Of a stretch of 32,000 nt of DNA, positions 811-7,248 are shown piece after piece. Origin of the DNA: Clostridia bacterium (GTDB lineage: Bacteria > Bacillota > Clostridia > Oscillospirales > Acutalibacteraceae); the NCBI GenBank assembly GCA_017409845.1, contig JAFQRY010000009.1, positions 45,715 to 77,714 on the forward strand, in the 5' to 3' direction. Below the pieces are notes generated by a model. That model was not told the origin of the DNA. It did no database searches and saw nothing but the letters and a program-made list of their open reading frames with translations. Positions within the stretch are counted from its first letter, which is position 1, and each line of letters starts with the position of its first letter. Position numbers and translations under genes: made by a program.

Positions 811-2062
811 GATAATCTCCCTTCATTTTCTTGAAATAATGCATTGCGAATATGATAACCCCGATGCCGAGAAGGGGATAAATTGCAGTAACAAGCATTC
901 CCGCCTTGAGACCGATTTGCTCGGTCATAAGACCCGTTGATGCTGCAAGCTCTGCAGCAAAGCTGCTTTCGGCAACCTTATCAACAACAATTCCGAGAAG
1001 CTGTGGAGCAACCGAGGCTCCGAGGTCGCCGCTTGATGCCATGAGGGCATATGCCGCAACGCCGATTCCGGGGATATTTTCTTCCATCATAATAAGTGTT
1101 CCGGGCCAGAGCATCGAGGTGAAAAGACCCGTCAATATGCATGCGGCAAAAGCAAAAGCAACATTTGACGAAAGTCCGGTAACGAGGTAGCAGACAGCCG
1201 CACCTGCCATGCCGCAAAGGAGAACTCTCATAATGTTCTTGCCGAATTTCGCATAGGAAATTCTTGCAATGCCGAGGAGAATTGCAAACATTGCCATGCC
1301 GAGGATATCGCCGACGGCTTTGTCAATCTGAAGAGCGTTTTCCATATAGGCTGAAACCCAGTTTGACATTGAGTTTTCCGCACAGCTGCCGAAGAAAATC
1401 GAGGCAACGCATATTGCAAGAGCAAGAGTCCTTCTGCGGGTGCCCTTTGTGCCTTCTCCGTCAGAGGAGCTTTCCTCCATGTCGGGCATGGGTGAAAGCA
1501 TAAACATAATTGCAGCGGAAACGGGAAGAACAGCCCAGAAAATTGTGAGCCACATCCAGTTTTCCGAACCGAAAAATCTGAGGAAAAGGGTGCTGATAAC
1601 AACAACCGTAAAAACGCCGAAGGCATAAAGCGAATGAAGAAGGCTCATATCCTTTTGCGGATTATCCGAAGGAATTGCGGCAATAACGGGGCTGAGAAGC
1701 ACTTCTGAAAGTCCTGCCGAAACAGAGAAAATCACCGTTCCGATAACGAGACCTATGTATGCATACTGCGGAAAAAGCTTTGGAAAAACTGCATAGATGA
1801 GCAGACCTGCCGAGGTTATAAGCGGCATGATTCTGACAACTTTTTTAACATTGAAGTGCTTTGAAAAGACGGTAAAGATGAGGTCAACCGTCATCTGGGT
1901 GCAGAAGTTTGTGAGCACAAGAGTGCCTAGAAGGGTGTATGAAATGCCGTAAATATCCTGAAGTGAAGCAAAAAGGAGGGGCGGCAGACTGAAAACCGAT
2001 GACATGGTGAAATATGCCAGATAGCAGGCAAGCTTTGTGCGTTTGAATTTGTTTGCGATCAT
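803..2062 (-). CDS. MFS-type transporter (about 12 TM), probably a sugar or glycoside importer co-transcribed with GH31
   Basis: 419-aa ORF, hydrophobic throughout with a charged central loop (EESSSDGEGTKGTRRR). GGGAG RBS lies 7 nt before the ATG. Translationally coupled to the downstream GH31 gene. Confidence 0.8.
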   Translation of the reverse strand: MIANKFKRTKLACYLAYFTMSSVFSLPPLLFASLQDIYGISYTLLGTLVLTNFCTQMTVDLIFTVFSKHFNVKKVVRIMPLITSAGLLIYAVFPKLFPQYAYIGLVIGTVIFSVSAGLSEVLLSPVIAAIPSDNPQKDMSLLHSLYAFGVFTVVVISTLFLRFFGSENWMWLTIFWAVLPVSAAIMFMLSPMPDMEESSSDGEGTKGTRRRTLALAICVASIFFGSCAENSMSNWVSAYMENALQIDKAVGDILGMAMFAILLGIARISYAKFGKNIMRVLLCGMAGAAVCYLVTGLSSNVAFAFAACILTGLFTSMLWPGTLIMMEENIPGIGVAAYALMASSGDLGASVAPQLLGIVVDKVAESSFAAELAASTGLMTEQIGLKAGMLVTAIYPLLGIGVIIFAMHYFKKMKGDYHG

Positions 2063-2116
2063 GTGAATCTCCCTAAAGTTTTATTTAAAAATAATTATAA
2101 CATATATTAACATAAA

Positions 2117-2162
2117 GTAAAATACCTCTGCGAAAAAAGAATTGTCTTTTTTCGCAGAGGTA
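2117..2162 (-). terminator. Rho-independent terminator ending the aspS-gatA-gatB operon
   Basis: 16-bp stem acctctgcgaaaaaag / cttttttcgcagaggt (2124-2139 / 2146-2161) just after the gatB stop, followed on the minus strand by TTTT. Confidence 0.75.
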
Positions 2163-2168
2163 TCAATG

Positions 2169-3578
2169 TTATTTATTAAGTTCCTTTTCAAGAAGCTCAC
2201 GGATAACAGCGGGGTCGCCGTTGCCTCTGAGCTCTTTCATAACCGAGCCGAAGAGTGACTGCATTGCTTTGACCTTGCCGCTCTTGTAGTCGGCAACCGC
2301 TTTATCGTTTTCGGCGATAACACGGCGGACTGTGTCAAGAATAAAGCCGTCATCAATCTTTGCGTTGAGGCTGTTTTCTTCACAGTATTTGTCAACATCA
2401 ACATCATCTTCAAATACTGCCGAAAGAACCTTTTTGCCTGCCGCACGGGTGATTTCTCCGCTCTCAACGAGCTCAATGATTCTGCTGAGCTTGTCGGGGC
2501 TGATTTCAAGAGAGGCGAGCTCAAGTCGCTTCATCTGACCCATGCATTCGGTGAGAATCCAGCTTGCAACGGTCTTGGGGCTTCTGCCCGATGCAACAAC
2601 CGCATCAAACATATCCGAAAGCTTTCTGTCGGAAGCGAGAACGGATGCTTCTTTTGCGGCAATGCCCATTTCCTCATAGTAGCCGCTCTTCTCTTCGGAG
2701 GTTGCGGGCATGCTTGCCTTGATTTCTGCAAGCCATTCATCGTCAATAACGATGGGCATGAGGTTGGGGTCGGGGAAATATCTGTAGTCCGCTGCGGTTT
2801 CCTTGTTTCTCATGGGGAAGGTGCGGCGCTTGACATCATCCCAGCGGCGGGTTTCCTGAACAAGCATTTCCGTGTGACGCTCGATTGCATCAACGTGGCG
2901 GACCTTTTCAAACTCGATTGCATCCTTGATTTCGGAGAGCGAGCTCATGTTTTTGATTTCTGAACGGACGCCGAGCTCATCCGAGCCCTCAGGGCGAACG
3001 GAAATATTGACGTCGCATCTCATTGCACCTTCTTCGCATTCGGAAATGCCTGCAAACTGAAGGCTTGATTTAAGCTTCTTGAGATATGCGATAACCTCAT
3101 CCGACGAACGGAAATCGGGTCTGCTGACGATTTCGATAAGAGGAACGCTGGTGCGGTTATAGTCAACGAATGAAGTGTTTGTTGCTTCGTCGTGAACAAG
3201 CTTGCCTGCGTCTTCCTCAACATGAATCTGCTTGATGCCGATTGTTCTGTCGCCAATCTGAACGCTGCCGTCAACGCAGATGGGGTGGAACCACTGAGTT
3301 ATCTGATAAGCACAGGGAAGGTCGGGATAATAATAGCTCTTCTTATCGAAGGTTGTGTACTGGTTGATTTTGCAGTTGAGCATGAAGCCTGCCTTGACTG
3401 CAAGCTCGATTGCGTGTTTGTTGGTTACGGGAAGCATACCGGGCATACCGCTGCAGGCAGGGCATACGCAGTCGTTGGGCTCCTTGGGGCTTGAATGACC
3501 GCCGCAGGAGCAGAAAAGCTTTGAATCGGTGGAAAGTTCAACGTGAGTTTCCAAACCTATAACAAGTTCGTATTTCAT
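2169..3578 (-). CDS. gatB: Asp-tRNA(Asn)/Glu-tRNA(Gln) amidotransferase subunit B
   Basis: 469 aa. N-terminus MKYELVIGLETHVELSTDSKLFCSC plus a YqeY-like tail are classic GatB. Its GGAGGTG RBS lies inside the 3' end of the upstream gatA-like gene, 3 nt from that gene's stop. Confidence 0.95.
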   Translation of the reverse strand: MKYELVIGLETHVELSTDSKLFCSCGGHSSPKEPNDCVCPACSGMPGMLPVTNKHAIELAVKAGFMLNCKINQYTTFDKKSYYYPDLPCAYQITQWFHPICVDGSVQIGDRTIGIKQIHVEEDAGKLVHDEATNTSFVDYNRTSVPLIEIVSRPDFRSSDEVIAYLKKLKSSLQFAGISECEEGAMRCDVNISVRPEGSDELGVRSEIKNMSSLSEIKDAIEFEKVRHVDAIERHTEMLVQETRRWDDVKRRTFPMRNKETAADYRYFPDPNLMPIVIDDEWLAEIKASMPATSEEKSGYYEEMGIAAKEASVLASDRKLSDMFDAVVASGRSPKTVASWILTECMGQMKRLELASLEISPDKLSRIIELVESGEITRAAGKKVLSAVFEDDVDVDKYCEENSLNAKIDDGFILDTVRRVIAENDKAVADYKSGKVKAMQSLFGSVMKELRGNGDPAVIRELLEKELNK

Positions 3579-3581
3579 TAT

Positions 3582-4760
3582 TTACACCTCCACGCTTTTT
3601 GCAATGCTGAGAAGCACGCTTTCTTTATATGAATCGGAAATGAGCTGAACACCCTTTGTTACCATTGCGGGAACGCCCGTGATTGAAGGGATTGCGGTGA
3701 AAAGGCTTTCTTCATAAACCTTTTCAAAAGCATCCGAAGCATCATAGGGAGCGTAGGCTGTCTGTGAGCATGCGGGAGCAAGGATTGCATCATATTCTGC
3801 AAGGATTTCTCTTACCTTATCGCAAACAATGCGGCGGATACGGAGCGATTTATCATAGCATTTTTCGTATTTTGCCTTTGCGAGAACATCCGAACCGTAG
3901 ATGATTGTTGCCTTTGCAAGGAAGCCCATTGATTCGGAGCGGCTCTTTACATAAAGCTCGTCAATGTTTTTGTATTCGGGAGTTCTGTAGCCGTATTTAA
4001 CGCCGTCAAATCTTGAAAGATTGTTGGTGGTTTCGGCTGCCATGAGAATCTGCCATGCGGTCTGTGCCTGAGAAGCAACATCAATTGAAACGGTTTCAAC
4101 CGTTGCACCGATTTTCTTAAGGCTTTCCGCATAAGCATCAATGCTTGCTTTGACTTCTGCACCTGCAGCTTCATAAAGCTCTTTTGCAATGCAGATTTTC
4201 ATTGCGGAAACATCTTCGCTTGTTGAATATTCGTATTTTTCGGCAGGAAGGCTTGTGCCGTCCTTGCTGTCGTGACCTGCAATAACGGTGAGGATTTCCT
4301 TTGCATCCTCTGCGTTTGCTGCGGTAACGCCGATCTGCTCACCCGAGCATGCACAGGCGATAATGCCGTAGCGTGAAACTGTGCCGTAGGTAGGCTTTAT
4401 GAAATCAACGCCCGAAACAGCTGCCGCACGGCGGGGTGCACCGTTGAGGTCAACATTGAGAGCAGCCTTTACTTTGCCCGAGGCAACAAGTGCTGCGGCT
4501 GCACCGACAAGCTTGCCGTTTTCGGTTTCGGGAGCAAAATATGAGGTTTCACCGAGAAGGTCCAGACCGAATTCGCCGACATTTGTTTTGCCTGCGATTT
4601 CATAGTCTGCTTTTTCAAGTCTTTCAACAGCCTCCGCACTGAAAAGGGGCTTGAAATTCTCAAGCATTTTTGAGCCTGCGGTTGCGGGAACGCCTTTAAC
4701 AAGAATTGTATCGTCTGCGGCAATTCTGCCTGCCGCATTAATTTCATTAATATAAATCAT
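3582..4760 (-). CDS. GatA-like amidase-signature protein, shortened, with degenerate catalytic motifs
   Basis: 392 aa against about 485 for typical GatA. Family blocks are retained (KMLENF, KTNVGEF, KPTYGTVSRYG, NNLSRFDGVKYGY). GGSSGGS reads GKLVGAA and DTGGSIR reads DLNGAPR. It occupies the gatA slot between aspS-gatC and gatB. Confidence 0.8.
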   Translation of the reverse strand: MIYINEINAAGRIAADDTILVKGVPATAGSKMLENFKPLFSAEAVERLEKADYEIAGKTNVGEFGLDLLGETSYFAPETENGKLVGAAAALVASGKVKAALNVDLNGAPRRAAAVSGVDFIKPTYGTVSRYGIIACACSGEQIGVTAANAEDAKEILTVIAGHDSKDGTSLPAEKYEYSTSEDVSAMKICIAKELYEAAGAEVKASIDAYAESLKKIGATVETVSIDVASQAQTAWQILMAAETTNNLSRFDGVKYGYRTPEYKNIDELYVKSRSESMGFLAKATIIYGSDVLAKAKYEKCYDKSLRIRRIVCDKVREILAEYDAILAPACSQTAYAPYDASDAFEKVYEESLFTAIPSITGVPAMVTKGVQLISDSYKESVLLSIAKSVEV

Positions 4761-4771
4761 TTATCTGCACC

Positions 4772-6880
4772 TCACTTAACAAGTCTGGGAACCTGCCAGC
4801 TGTCTTCCGTGCTCTGGGGAGCACCTTCAAGCAGGTCTTTGCGGGCAAAGGGCTGATTTCTGCCGTCGTTTCTGAGAACATTTGTCATGGGCATAACATA
4901 AACCATGGCTTCAACATCCGCAGTATCGGTCTTTTCAAGCTTTGCTTCGTTTTTACCCATCATATCAAGGATTTTCTGCATCTTTTTCTTTTCGTCTGCA
5001 TCAAAGCAGAGCTCGTTTACGCTTTCAAGCTCCCTGAGCCAGCCCTCCTTGGTCATTGCACCGCCCTTAGCGGATTTGACGGTTGCGGCAAATGCGGAAT
5101 TATCGCTTTCACTGCCGCCGACCTCAACGCTGCCGCCCTTGCCTCTGATGCTGACATTAGCCTCAAAGAGCTGAAGCTCGGTAACTTCGCCGGGTGCACC
5201 GAGCATCTGATCCTGTGCGGTGCCGTCAAGCGGGAATGCGATAACATCACGGATTGTTTCGGTGTCTGCAAGAAGCATGATGATTCTGTCAACGCCGGGT
5301 GCCATACCTGCATGGGGAGGAGCACCGAACTGGAATGCATTATAGAGTGCACTGAAGCGTCTTTCAACCTCATCCTCGCTGTAGCCTGCAATTTCAAATG
5401 CCTTGCGCATGATTTCGGGGCTGTGGTTTCTTACCGCACCCGAAGCAAGCTCGATGCCGTTACAAACAAGGTCATACTGATATGCAAGAATTTCGCAGGG
5501 ATCCATATTCTCAAGTGCATCAAGACCGCCCTGAGGCATTGAGAACGGATTGTGTGTGAATATAATCTTATCTGTTGTTTCGTCACGCTCATACATGGGG
5601 AAATCAACAACAAAGCAGAATTCAAATGAATCATTCTTTATAAGCTCAAGCTCATTGCCGAGCCATGTGCGGATAACGCCTGCATTCTTATCGGCAACAT
5701 CTGCAATGTTATCGCAGATGAAGAAGATTGTTTCGCCTTCCTTAACGCCTGTGAGCTCAACGATTTCTTTCTTTTCTTCTTCTGTCATAACCTTGCTGAT
5801 GGGGTCATCCTTGAAGCCGTAGTTTGCGGCATCAAGAAGGGTAATATGTGCAAGACCTGCCATCTTTGCCTGCTTTGTTGCGAATGCAAGGGATTTATCA
5901 AAGAACCATCTTTCGTTTTTGCAGGGAGCAACGATTGCTCTGACGAATTTATTCATAAAGGGCTTGAACTGAACCCTCTTGAACATATCGGTAAGGTCGC
6001 AGATGATAAGGGGATTGCGAAGGTCGGGCTTATCCGAGCCGTATTTTGCCATTGCTTCCGCATAAGGAATGCGGCGGAAGGGCGAAGCGGTAACCTTCTT
6101 ATCGGAGAAGGTTCTGAAAATATCGCTTACAACGCTTTCGCAGACCTCAAGGACCTCGTCCTGAGTTGAAAATGCCATTTCAAAGTCGAGCTGATAGAAT
6201 TCGCCGGGTGAACGGTCGGCACGGGCATCCTCGTCTCTGAAGCAGGGAGCAATCTGATAATATTTATCGAAGCCCGAAACCATGAGCAGCTGCTTGAACT
6301 GCTGAGGTGCCTGCGGCAGAGCATAAAACTTGCCGGGATGCTTTCTGCTGGGAACAAGGAAGTCTCTTGCACCCTCGGGAGATGAAGCGGTGAGGATGGG
6401 AGTCTGGATATCAAGGAAGCCTCTTTCTTCCATGAGCTTTCTCATGTGACCGATAACCTTTGAACGAAGAAGAATATTCTTGTGAAGGTCAGGATTTCTC
6501 AGGTCAAGGAATCTGTGCTTGAGGCGGATATTTTCGTTTGTGTCGTTTGAGCCGATTTCAAAGGGAAGGTCACGGCTGCATACACCGAGAACATCGAGCT
6601 TATCGCAAACGAGCTCAACAAGACCTGTTTCGATTTTGGGGTTAACCGTGCTTTCGTCACGCTTGGTTACAACGCCCGAAACAGAAATAACCGTTTCCTT
6701 GCTGATGCCCTTAACGAGATTTTCGTCGTGAACAACAACCTGGGTTACGCCCGTTTCGTCACGCAGGTCAACGAAAAGAACGCCGCCGTGGTCACGGATA
6801 ACGTCAACCCAGCCTGCAAGCTCAACTCTCTGACCGATGTGACTCTCTCTTATTTCGTTACATCTGTGAGTTCTGTACAT
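4772..6880 (-). CDS. aspS: Aspartyl-tRNA synthetase with a C-terminal GatC domain (AspRS-GatC fusion)
   Basis: 702 aa. Bacterial AspRS features run from the OB-fold N-terminus through FRDEDARADR to GAPPHAGMAPGVDRIIMLL...IRDVIAFP, up to about residue 585. A G/S/A linker follows, then a 94-aa GatC-like tail (nt 4775-5056). Confidence 0.9.
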   Translation of the reverse strand: MYRTHRCNEIRESHIGQRVELAGWVDVIRDHGGVLFVDLRDETGVTQVVVHDENLVKGISKETVISVSGVVTKRDESTVNPKIETGLVELVCDKLDVLGVCSRDLPFEIGSNDTNENIRLKHRFLDLRNPDLHKNILLRSKVIGHMRKLMEERGFLDIQTPILTASSPEGARDFLVPSRKHPGKFYALPQAPQQFKQLLMVSGFDKYYQIAPCFRDEDARADRSPGEFYQLDFEMAFSTQDEVLEVCESVVSDIFRTFSDKKVTASPFRRIPYAEAMAKYGSDKPDLRNPLIICDLTDMFKRVQFKPFMNKFVRAIVAPCKNERWFFDKSLAFATKQAKMAGLAHITLLDAANYGFKDDPISKVMTEEEKKEIVELTGVKEGETIFFICDNIADVADKNAGVIRTWLGNELELIKNDSFEFCFVVDFPMYERDETTDKIIFTHNPFSMPQGGLDALENMDPCEILAYQYDLVCNGIELASGAVRNHSPEIMRKAFEIAGYSEDEVERRFSALYNAFQFGAPPHAGMAPGVDRIIMLLADTETIRDVIAFPLDGTAQDQMLGAPGEVTELQLFEANVSIRGKGGSVEVGGSESDNSAFAATVKSAKGGAMTKEGWLRELESVNELCFDADEKKKMQKILDMMGKNEAKLEKTDTADVEAMVYVMPMTNVLRNDGRNQPFARKDLLEGAPQSTEDSWQVPRLVK

Positions 6881-6920
6881 TTTATCATACCTCCGTTTGG
6901 TGGTTTATCTTCTTTACAAT

Positions 6921-6983
6921 TAATAATGAAAAATGAATAATGAATAATGAAAAATTAATGATAGGCTGCGCCTATGACCGATT
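6921..6983 (+). repeat. Interspersed repeat family R1 (AATGAATAAT-rich tract + short hairpin + CCGATT), copy a, inside the aspS 5' UTR
   Basis: taataatgaaaaatgaataatgaataatgaaaaattaatgATAGGCtgcGCCTATgaccgatt matches 22353-22408 (...aataatgaataatgaataattaaggAAGGGCtacGCCCTTgcccgatt). The stem sequence differs between copies but pairing is kept. Confidence 0.6.
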
Positions 6984-6998
6984 TGATATTTTGTAAAA

Positions 6999-7215
6999 AC
7001 AAAAAATCCCGGGAACTTCAGAAATGAAATTCCCGGGACGAGTAATTTAACCCGCGGTGCCACCCGTATTGATACATATAAATATGTATCCGCTTTTAGT
7101 ATTATAATGTGGGGAACCGTTGAAGTGTTGCCGTGCTTACTACTTATCCGAAGTGCACTTTCAGCCCATGATGCACTCTCTCTTTCGGACTTTCCAAAAA
7201 AGCCGAGTCTTCAAA
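6999..7215 (-). promoter_or_regulatory. T-box riboswitch leader of the aspS-gatA-gatB operon (candidate Asn specifier)
   Basis: The minus strand carries the T-box core AATACGGGTGGCACCGCGGG (7049-7070). It is followed by terminator TCCCGGGAAtttcatttctgaagTTCCCGGGA + TTTTTTG (7000-7038). Upstream are an AGAGAG motif and an AGTGCA...TGCACT helix. GGC-AAC-A precedes the helix strand CTTCAA, which pairs with TTGAAG at the 5' end. Confidence 0.85.
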
Positions 7216-7219
7216 TCGC

Positions 7220-7248
7220 ATTATAACAAATTGAAAAAGCCTTGTCAA
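7220..7248 (-). promoter_or_regulatory. Consensus sigma-A promoter driving the T-box leader
   Basis: Minus strand TTGACA (7248-7243), 17 nt spacer, TATAAT (7225-7220). Confidence 0.65.

Follow-up and report, generated by a model that had tools for sequence, protein, structure and literature searches.

How can an operon for tRNA-dependent asparagine synthesis operate when the subunit in its gatA position has lost the residues by which GatA would draw ammonia from glutamine? This question is raised by a 32,000-nt stretch of a genome of the Acutalibacteraceae (Clostridia; assembly GCA_017409845.1, contig JAFQRY010000009.1, positions 45,715 to 77,714), which was analysed as a whole and is called the window below. 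Its minus strand carries a gene for a fusion of aspartyl-tRNA synthetase (AspRS) with GatC, followed by a gatA-derived gene, here designated gatA', and by gatB. GatCAB serves as a standard example of enzymes with two sites: ammonia released by a glutaminase travels through a tunnel of 30 angstroms to a synthetase site far away. By descent and fold, GatA' belongs to the amidase-signature family and to the GatA lineage. At the same time it fails the features that define the enzyme, namely the catalytic triad, the signature loop, the glutamine-binding residues, and the equivalog cutoff. GatA' is probably a GatA descendant that has lost catalysis while its structure was preserved, and that is kept as the scaffold of an Asn-specific transamidosome that would consist of AspRS-GatC, GatA', and GatB. 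The gene and the sites that carry this interpretation are located in the window as follows.

3582..4760, minus strand: gatA', encoding a GatA-derived subunit without the Ser-cisSer-Lys triad, 392 aa
4425..4520, minus strand: part of gatA' for residues 81-112, with degenerate GGSSGG and GSDTGGS motifs, translated as NGKLVGAAAALVASGKVKAALNVDLNGAPRRA
4713-4715, minus strand: codon of Asp16 (this and the following codons were checked in the sequence)
4509-4511, minus strand: codon of Leu84
4437-4439, minus strand: codon of Ala108
3906-3908, minus strand: codon of Thr285
3705-3707, minus strand: codon of Ser352

The original prediction, which was based on a hand alignment, held that both catalytic serines had been lost and that the catalytic lysine was kept as K22. 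GatA' was aligned in three independent ways: by phmmer with the solved GatA structures of Thermotoga maritima (3al0_A) and Staphylococcus aureus (2df4_A), by MAFFT with 21 canonical GatA sequences of related operons, and with a hidden Markov model (HMM) built from 52 canonical GatA representatives. The register of GatA' is the same in all three. GKLVGA stands opposite GGSSGG, so that Leu84 occupies the position of the cis-serine (Ser154 in S. aureus, the first S of GGSSGG), and NVDLNGA stands opposite GSDTGGS, with Ala108 in place of the nucleophile Ser178. It is at Ser178 that S. aureus GatA binds glutamine covalently in the reaction intermediate (PMC2330236). The loss of both serines is thus borne out, and a shift in the hand alignment does not explain it, because neither the phmmer nor the MAFFT nor the profile alignment restores them. 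The lysine, on the other hand, was misplaced: in every alignment the catalytic Lys79 of S. aureus (motif IKDN) is replaced by Asp16 of GatA' (AADDT), and K22 is found six positions further towards the C-terminus, in a column without a catalytic role. All three residues of the Ser-cisSer-Lys triad are gone from GatA'. The observation is stronger than first claimed, as it comprises the full triad and extends over the whole clade.

The losses go beyond the triad. The signature GGSS[GS]GS has become GKLVGAA, directly preceded by a deletion of seven residues, and the same is found in 59 of 59 related loci. Tyr309, Arg358, and Asp425 of the S. aureus enzyme have roles in glutamine binding (10.1101/733030; PMC4027206, with D418 and R334 as yeast equivalents). 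Their counterparts in GatA' are Trp236, Thr285, and Ser352, respectively, and the columns of Arg358 and Asp425 are variable across the family of dead GatA' proteins. GatA' is also about 90 aa shorter than canonical GatA. As had been predicted, most of the difference falls at the N-terminus, where about 62 residues are missing; a further 7-8 are absent around the GGSSGG loop and 10 from a C-terminal loop. The ATG of gatA' lies 11 nt past the stop codon of aspS-gatC, and an upstream extension of the open reading frame (ORF) is impossible. In profile searches, GatA' matches Pfam Amidase (PF01425) with 178.9 bits, far above the gathering score (27). GatA is still its top-scoring NCBIfam family, but the match to TIGR00132 (gatA) reaches 259.2 bits and misses the cutoff of 481.1. 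The proposal of a glutaminase-dead scaffold holds up as far as sequence goes: triad, signature loop, and glutamine-binding Arg and Asp are absent, while fold, selection, operon, and GatB are kept. GatA' should be unable to hydrolyse glutamine by the known mechanism.

An AlphaFold2 model of GatA' has a mean pLDDT of 94, and its top Foldseek matches in the PDB are GatA chains from structures of GatCAB and of transamidosomes (TMq 0.91-0.93); other amidase-signature enzymes are matched as well. In comparisons with the closest relatives, the ratio of nonsynonymous to synonymous substitution rates (dN/dS) is 0.10-0.19 for gatA', 0.01-0.08 for gatB, and 0.06-0.10 for aspS, and gatA' is thus under purifying selection. 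The gene is also widespread. Intact 392-aa gatA' ORFs occur in more than 120 clusters at 88% identity or higher, from metagenome-assembled genomes (MAGs) of Clostridia, where the NCBI product label is 'hypothetical protein'. A library with clusters at 50% identity was searched as well. Of its best 150 matches, 48 have none of the three triad residues, 11 lack the Lys and the cis-Ser, and 68 are canonical; at least 59 clusters at this level carry the dead form. A scan of GTDB species representatives, with an alignment of six sequences as the query, retrieved 59 loci with the short form. Their record titles name Acutalibacteraceae, Oscillospiraceae, Christensenellaceae, Ca. Flemingiibacterium, and Ca. 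Copromorpha, and most of the genomes come from the gut of ruminants, horses, or humans or from anaerobic digesters. All 59 carry Asp in place of the catalytic Lys and show the deletion at the signature loop, with position 108 being variable, and all share the gene order aspS, gatC (fused or separate), gatA', gatB.

The pattern of conservation in this family is twofold. Dead and canonical forms have 54 conserved GatA positions in common, including the motifs KPTYGxVSR and SRxDGxKxG. Around the old pocket, however, other residues have become fixed in the dead family: Asp16 (100%), Asn106 (97%), Arg111 (100%), and Trp236 (98%). Such gains suggest that the former pocket has come under a new constraint and has not simply decayed. 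Beneath the former active site lie the conserved polar residues Asp17, Asp104, Arg110, Ser129, and Arg130. Further positions that are 97-100% conserved in the dead family and unlike canonical GatA are Gly140/Glu141, Gly168, and Asn246. A separate group of GatA-like proteins of nearly full length (P0182, P0169, P0202, and P0246; 470-493 aa) has otherwise canonical motifs and a substituted triad (for example K to A, GGASGG, GGAVRQP). These proteins may represent independent losses of catalysis outside the short clade.

On the minus strand, the region from 7248 to 2121 forms a single compact transcription unit, from promoter through terminator. Besides gatA' it comprises the following elements.

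7220..7248, minus strand: sigma-70-type promoter, TTGACA-17 nt-TATAAT with TG extension, 12 of 12 consensus matches in a pattern scan, immediately 5' of the T-box leader
7031..7225, minus strand: T-box leader of about 195 nt, with the specifier AAC (Asn) at 7127-7129 and the motif GGGUGGCACCGCG at 7053-7065
7006..7039, minus strand: terminator hairpin of the T-box switch, a 15-bp stem and then the T-run TTTTTTGTTTT, overlapping the 3' half of the T-box element
4772..6880, minus strand: aspS-gatC fusion, encoding a bacterial-type AspRS with C-terminal GatC, 702 aa
4796-5002, minus strand: GatC domain of AspRS-GatC, roughly residues 627-695
2169..3578, minus strand: gatB, full length with conserved motifs intact, 469 aa
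2121..2164, minus strand: intrinsic terminator ending the three-gene operon, a 20-bp stem and a T-rich tail, 5 nt past the gatB stop codon

The start of gatB lies 3 nt past the gatA' stop codon, in agreement with the earlier statement that GatA' sits in the gatA slot with gatB coupled to it. The remaining window is an ordinary clostridial chromosome with genes for YqfD, UvrC, QueT, helix-turn-helix regulators, and a major facilitator superfamily transporter; no further gat, asn, or asparaginase gene and no tRNA gene were found in it.

Regulation points to Asn-tRNA-Asn as the product of the complex. The leader matches the T-box model RF00230 with 52.3 bits (E 1.3e-10 on a 551-nt stretch). This score is below the Rfam gathering score of 93, and the element is therefore invisible to a standard Rfam scan, which at gathering thresholds returned nothing across the whole window. 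The T-box features mentioned above are nonetheless in place, with AAC-A at 7126-7129 as the specifier and its flanking purine. In the fold, AACA is unpaired and located immediately 5' of the Stem I closing helix UUGAAG/CUUCAA. The minimum free energy fold of Stem I shows no significant gain in stability over shuffled sequences (z = -0.9), and the specifier was assigned from T-box architecture and conservation across loci, not from energy. Related leaders, located by a relaxed T-box sequence pattern, fall into two quite different sequence types that both have the AAC specifier. The AAC codon with a purine after it is kept by 26 of 27 type-A leaders, the type of the window, and by 14 of 14 type-B leaders, which belong to the unfused clade (40 of 41 in total). 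With an Asn specifier so conserved, the operon is likely switched on by uncharged tRNA-Asn. A weak match to the IS605-orfB-I RNA (18 bits, E 0.12; window 6889-7045, plus strand) overlaps the T-box terminator hairpin and is judged to be a chance match.

A similar regulatory logic is known from a canonical operon. According to the account of Saad et al. (2012, J Biol Chem 287:20382) given in PMC4206432, the aspS-gatCAB operon of Clostridium acetobutylicum places the AspRS gene, gatC, gatA, and gatB behind a tRNA-Asn-responsive T-box. The Lachnospiraceae loci L059-L080 have exactly this layout, with a canonical GatA. The operons differ in their parts: those of the C. acetobutylicum type encode an archaeal-type non-discriminating AspRS of about 445 aa and an intact GatA of 490 aa, whereas the operons studied here combine a bacterial-type AspRS, often fused to GatC, with a dead GatA. 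The shared Asn T-box logic argues that the complex still makes Asn-tRNA-Asn and does not serve an unrelated task. A non-canonical role of the complex, which the original prediction had kept as an alternative, is less likely in view of the conserved Asn-specific T-box.

The predicted fusion of AspRS and GatC is real, as Pfam detects tRNA-synt_2, tRNA_anti-codon, GAD, and, at the C-terminus, GatC (32 bits, gathering score 23), and the protein scores 743 bits with the NCBIfam aspS equivalog. GatC is fused to AspRS in the clade of the window (about 690-740 aa), and a deeper clade has separate aspS (576-600 aa) and gatC (93 aa) genes. Since GatA is dead in both, its inactivation predates the fusion. 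AspRS-GatC (4772-6880) was also compared with the NCBIfam model NF009460 (PRK12820, 'bifunctional AspRS/GatC'). Membership in that family was rejected, as the score is 434 bits against a cutoff of 1379 and the AspRS part alone aligns, leaving GatC unaligned. AspRS-GatC appears to have arisen separately from that family, by a fusion within the dead-GatA clade. In locus L090, an archaeal-type non-discriminating AspRS (1651-3000; NF003483, 432 bits against a cutoff of 353) is encoded directly upstream of a T-box/AspRS-GatC operon, and this genome therefore has the two AspRS types side by side.

GatB is orthodox. It passes three NCBIfam GatB equivalog cutoffs (for example NF004012 with 561 versus 338 bits and TIGR00133 with 498 versus 315 bits) and aligns end to end with solved GatB chains, including 3al0_B. 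In canonical and dead-operon GatB alike, 103 residues are invariant, among them E10, H12, E14, E121, E122, D123, E149, N191, and S193. The kept motifs include the beta-1 E-x-H-x-E, HxEEDAGK, E149, and N191 with S193, and the motifs of the cradle and YqeY domains are conserved as well. We tentatively assign these conserved residues to the binding of ATP and Mg, by comparison with the residues that PMC4027206 lists for the GatB of yeast and bacteria. In one MAG (locus L088, 3066-4484) gatB is divided into two ORFs of 214 and 242 aa, probably by a frameshift or an assembly error.

Taken as a whole, the system resembles the bacterial GatCAB and Asn-transamidosome complexes of S. aureus (2df4), Thermus thermophilus (3kfu), and Pseudomonas aeruginosa (4wj3). 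The three components and their gene order are the same, GatA' is predicted to have the GatA fold, and GatB is normal. AspRS is physically tied to the amidotransferase in the Asn-transamidosome, and here the tie is covalent and made through GatC. The difference lies in GatA', which is shorter and lacks the triad, the GGSSGG loop, and the Arg and Asp that bind glutamine, so that the half-reaction from glutamine to ammonia would be impossible in this subunit.

Under the favoured interpretation of GatA' as an inactive scaffold, the operon would work as follows. A build-up of uncharged tRNA-Asn would cause readthrough at the Asn T-box and expression of the three genes. AspRS would charge tRNA-Asn with Asp, and GatB would phosphorylate and then amidate the Asp to yield Asn-tRNA-Asn. 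The amide nitrogen could not derive from glutamine hydrolysis by GatA'. Most likely, GatB would use free ammonia or ammonium, which may enter via the remodelled pocket of the former active site and then follow the old tunnel between GatA and GatB. In many relatives a neighbouring asparaginase-family enzyme may add to this ammonia supply or replace it. The formation of the complex, ongoing transamidation, and ammonia as the donor together with its entry route are what we infer from these data.

Free ammonia is the likeliest nitrogen source and is preferred over a donor enzyme of the asparaginase family. Ammonia is plentiful in the rumen and the hindgut, and the origin of most dead-GatA genomes from such ammonia-rich habitats supports it as a plausible donor. 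The conserved polar residues beneath the old active site also speak for free ammonia. A comparable logic, that a glutaminase half may be dispensable in ammonia-rich niches, can be proposed from the NH3-dependent versions of glutamine amidotransferases, such as those known for the NAD synthetase NadE and for AsnA as opposed to AsnB. In those enzymes, however, the glutaminase domain is usually absent outright, whereas here it is kept as a folded, selected, and inactive subunit. Amidotransferases of the GatCAB type carry out transamidation with 20 mM NH4Cl when the glutaminase is bypassed, and a perturbed or destabilised GatA site leads to higher NH4Cl-dependent activity (PMC4027206).

Four points weigh against an inactive scaffold supplied with free ammonia. 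The asparaginase-family gene that is linked to related operons suggests that the donor may be ammonia generated by an enzyme. The new invariant polar residues of GatA' could mean a ligand-binding or catalytic function instead of a passive scaffold. By dN/dS, gatA' evolves about twice as fast as its neighbours gatB and aspS, under more relaxed constraint. Finally, a canonical gatCAB, asnS, asnA, or asnB may possibly exist elsewhere in the genome, outside the window and the further 10 kb inspected downstream of gatB.

The rival explanation that survives best, although we regard it as rather unlikely, holds that ammonia is supplied by a separate amidohydrolase: a divergent asparaginase-family protein would act on Asn or Gln beside GatA' and GatB, like GatD does for GatE. 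In a variant of this scheme, the enzyme could salvage free Asn to Asp and NH3, both of which are substrates of the pathway. Clustering of the neighbour genes of related loci revealed such a protein of 330-400 aa (Pfam PF00710), in which the motifs TGGTIC and HGTDT are kept. At a distance of up to 3.5 kb from the dead-GatA operon, its gene occurs in 14 of the 59 GTDB loci, from fused and unfused clades, and in 10 of those 37 whose flanks measure at least 3 kb on both sides. In L010, L052, L039, L027, L014, and L022 it directly follows gatB on the same strand with a gap of 0-60 nt, and it likewise follows gatB in L085 and L090, which makes at least eight such loci. Examples are located as follows in the respective loci.

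L010, 8577-9701: asparaginase-family gene directly after gatB
L052, 8642-9697: asparaginase-family gene directly after gatB
L039, 8605-9597: asparaginase-family gene directly after gatB
L085, 8001-9077: asparaginase-family gene after gatB
L006, 2414-3526, minus strand: asparaginase-family gene

When members of this family were picked solely for their long contigs, 4 of 4 adjoined a dead-GatA operon, and the gene occurs in none of the 21 canonical Lachnospiraceae loci. An asparaginase in an operon induced by Asn starvation would make sense if it supplied NH3, plus Asp, or if it served in salvage. The link is not exclusive, however, and the idea that it might be was dropped: the gene also lies upstream of operons with canonical GatA (L114, L141) and stands alone on many gut contigs (L097-L108, L119-L144, L169). 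Copies that precede the operon do not stand behind its T-box; none of these genes has its own T-box, and none was found upstream of the one stand-alone gene tested (L169). The gene was not found in the 32-kb window or in an additional 10 kb downstream of gatB. A comparison of NCBI accession ranges between GatA' clusters and asparaginase-like clusters revealed no shared MAG, a result of little weight because identical proteins share accessions. A look-up of P0002 (99% identical) yielded no linking contig, and one of the window's UvrC, aimed at the other flank, yielded no record.

The parallel with archaea has similar limits. In archaeal GatDE, the GatB-type kinase/amidase GatE is fed by an ammonia generator of the asparaginase family and not by an amidase-signature GatA (PMC2330236). 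The linkage of an asparaginase-family gene to many, albeit not all, dead-GatA operons is reminiscent of this arrangement. In contrast to GatDE, there is no GatE here, GatA' is still present, and the asparaginase-like protein consists of the core only, without the N-terminal domain of GatD. Its column for the usual catalytic Lys, part of the Thr-Lys-Asp triad of GatD, is not conserved. It scores 84-94 bits with GatD models (cutoffs 310-324) and about 100 bits with the type I asparaginase model, which is also far below the cutoff, and its predicted fold resembles ordinary type I asparaginases at least as well as GatD (GatD 2d6f_A ranks 40th, with a TM-score of 0.68). The label 'GatD-like' was therefore discarded.

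A doubtful further reading joins the two schemes into a hybrid amidotransferase that would not yet have been described. GatA' would serve purely as a scaffold and conduit, its polar pocket rebuilt and conserved (Asp16, Asn106, Arg111), and a dedicated enzyme of the asparaginase family would deliver the ammonia. This enzyme would amount to a bacterial analogue of GatD on a GatCAB chassis, and it would also recycle free Asn to Asp and NH3, from which Asn is made anew on the tRNA. In the literature, which was covered incompletely, we found neither a GatA that lacks the triad nor a bacterial GatB that works together with an asparaginase; this is absence of evidence only.

Improbable, in our view, is the explanation that a canonical GatA encoded elsewhere in the genome partners this GatB or a second GatB, and that GatA' is a regulatory or competing subunit. 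A precedent would be Tse8 of P. aeruginosa, a GatA-like protein that engages GatB and GatC non-catalytically (10.1101/733030), and AtzE likewise has a GatC-like partner, AtzG, according to the title of the structure entry (6c62). Moreover, PMC4206432, citing Saad et al. (2012), mentions several gatCAB sets in some Clostridia. Over the region covered, which comprises the window and a further 10 kb downstream of gatB, no canonical gatCAB, asnS, asnA, or asnB and no asparaginase-like gene were found. Tse8 and AtzE, however, keep the catalytic triad, and neither occupies the gatA slot of an aspS-gatC-gatB operon as GatA' does. In 59 of 59 loci GatA' sits in this slot, tightly coupled to gatB, and in none of them is there a second, adjoining gatA. 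GatC, too, is fused to the AspRS of the same operon or encoded next to its gene. Long-term purifying selection in a fixed operon of three or four genes fits a stoichiometric subunit.

Still less credible is the view that GatA' remains an enzyme which acts on some amide donor through a new catalytic arrangement of Asp16, Asp17, Asp104, Asn106, Arg110, and Arg111. Within the dead family these residues are 97-100% conserved, several of them being other than in canonical GatA, and an acidic residue (Asp or Glu) is also found at the Lys position in more distant members. A conserved nucleophile, by contrast, is lacking, as position 108 is A, S, T, Y, C, E, K, or yet another residue, and the loop that carries the signature and the oxyanion site is deleted. 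We know of no amidase-signature enzyme that works without the Ser-cisSer-Lys triad. That gatA' is a decaying pseudogene or an annotation artefact in an operon that no longer transamidates, for which one could cite the label 'hypothetical protein' and the score well below the gatA equivalog cutoff, can be rejected on conservation and selection, because the gene is common to relatives with intact ORFs in the numbers given above and evolves under purifying selection, its predicted fold is of high confidence, GatB is intact, and the regulated operon is preserved.

If GatA' is indeed an inactive scaffold, this clade represents a natural experiment. A large group of bacteria keeps the tunnel-bearing subunit of GatCAB and deletes its chemistry, which would part the role of GatA as a scaffold and tunnel from its role as a catalyst. 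Abundant Clostridia of the rumen and hindgut (Acutalibacteraceae, Oscillospiraceae, and relatives) would then make Asn-tRNA with nitrogen other than that of GatA-bound glutamine. This raises the questions of whether the GatCAB tunnel is used by ammonium in vivo, whether GatB has a structural need for GatA, and whether a bacterial GatB can work with a donor of the asparaginase type. There are also consequences for annotation: GatA' is labelled 'hypothetical protein' or is liable to be mislabelled as an amidase, and pathway reconstructions would wrongly infer that GatCAB is absent or that it is normal. Among the other genes near dead-GatA operons, one for an AlaXM-like trans-editing protein (385 aa; tRNA-synt_2c, tRNA_SAD, and DHHA1 domains) recurs in about seven loci, for example L007 (3063-3622) and L088 (9049-10206), downstream of gatB or of the asparaginase-like gene. 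It could encode an editing factor of the pathway, or its position could be a coincidence.

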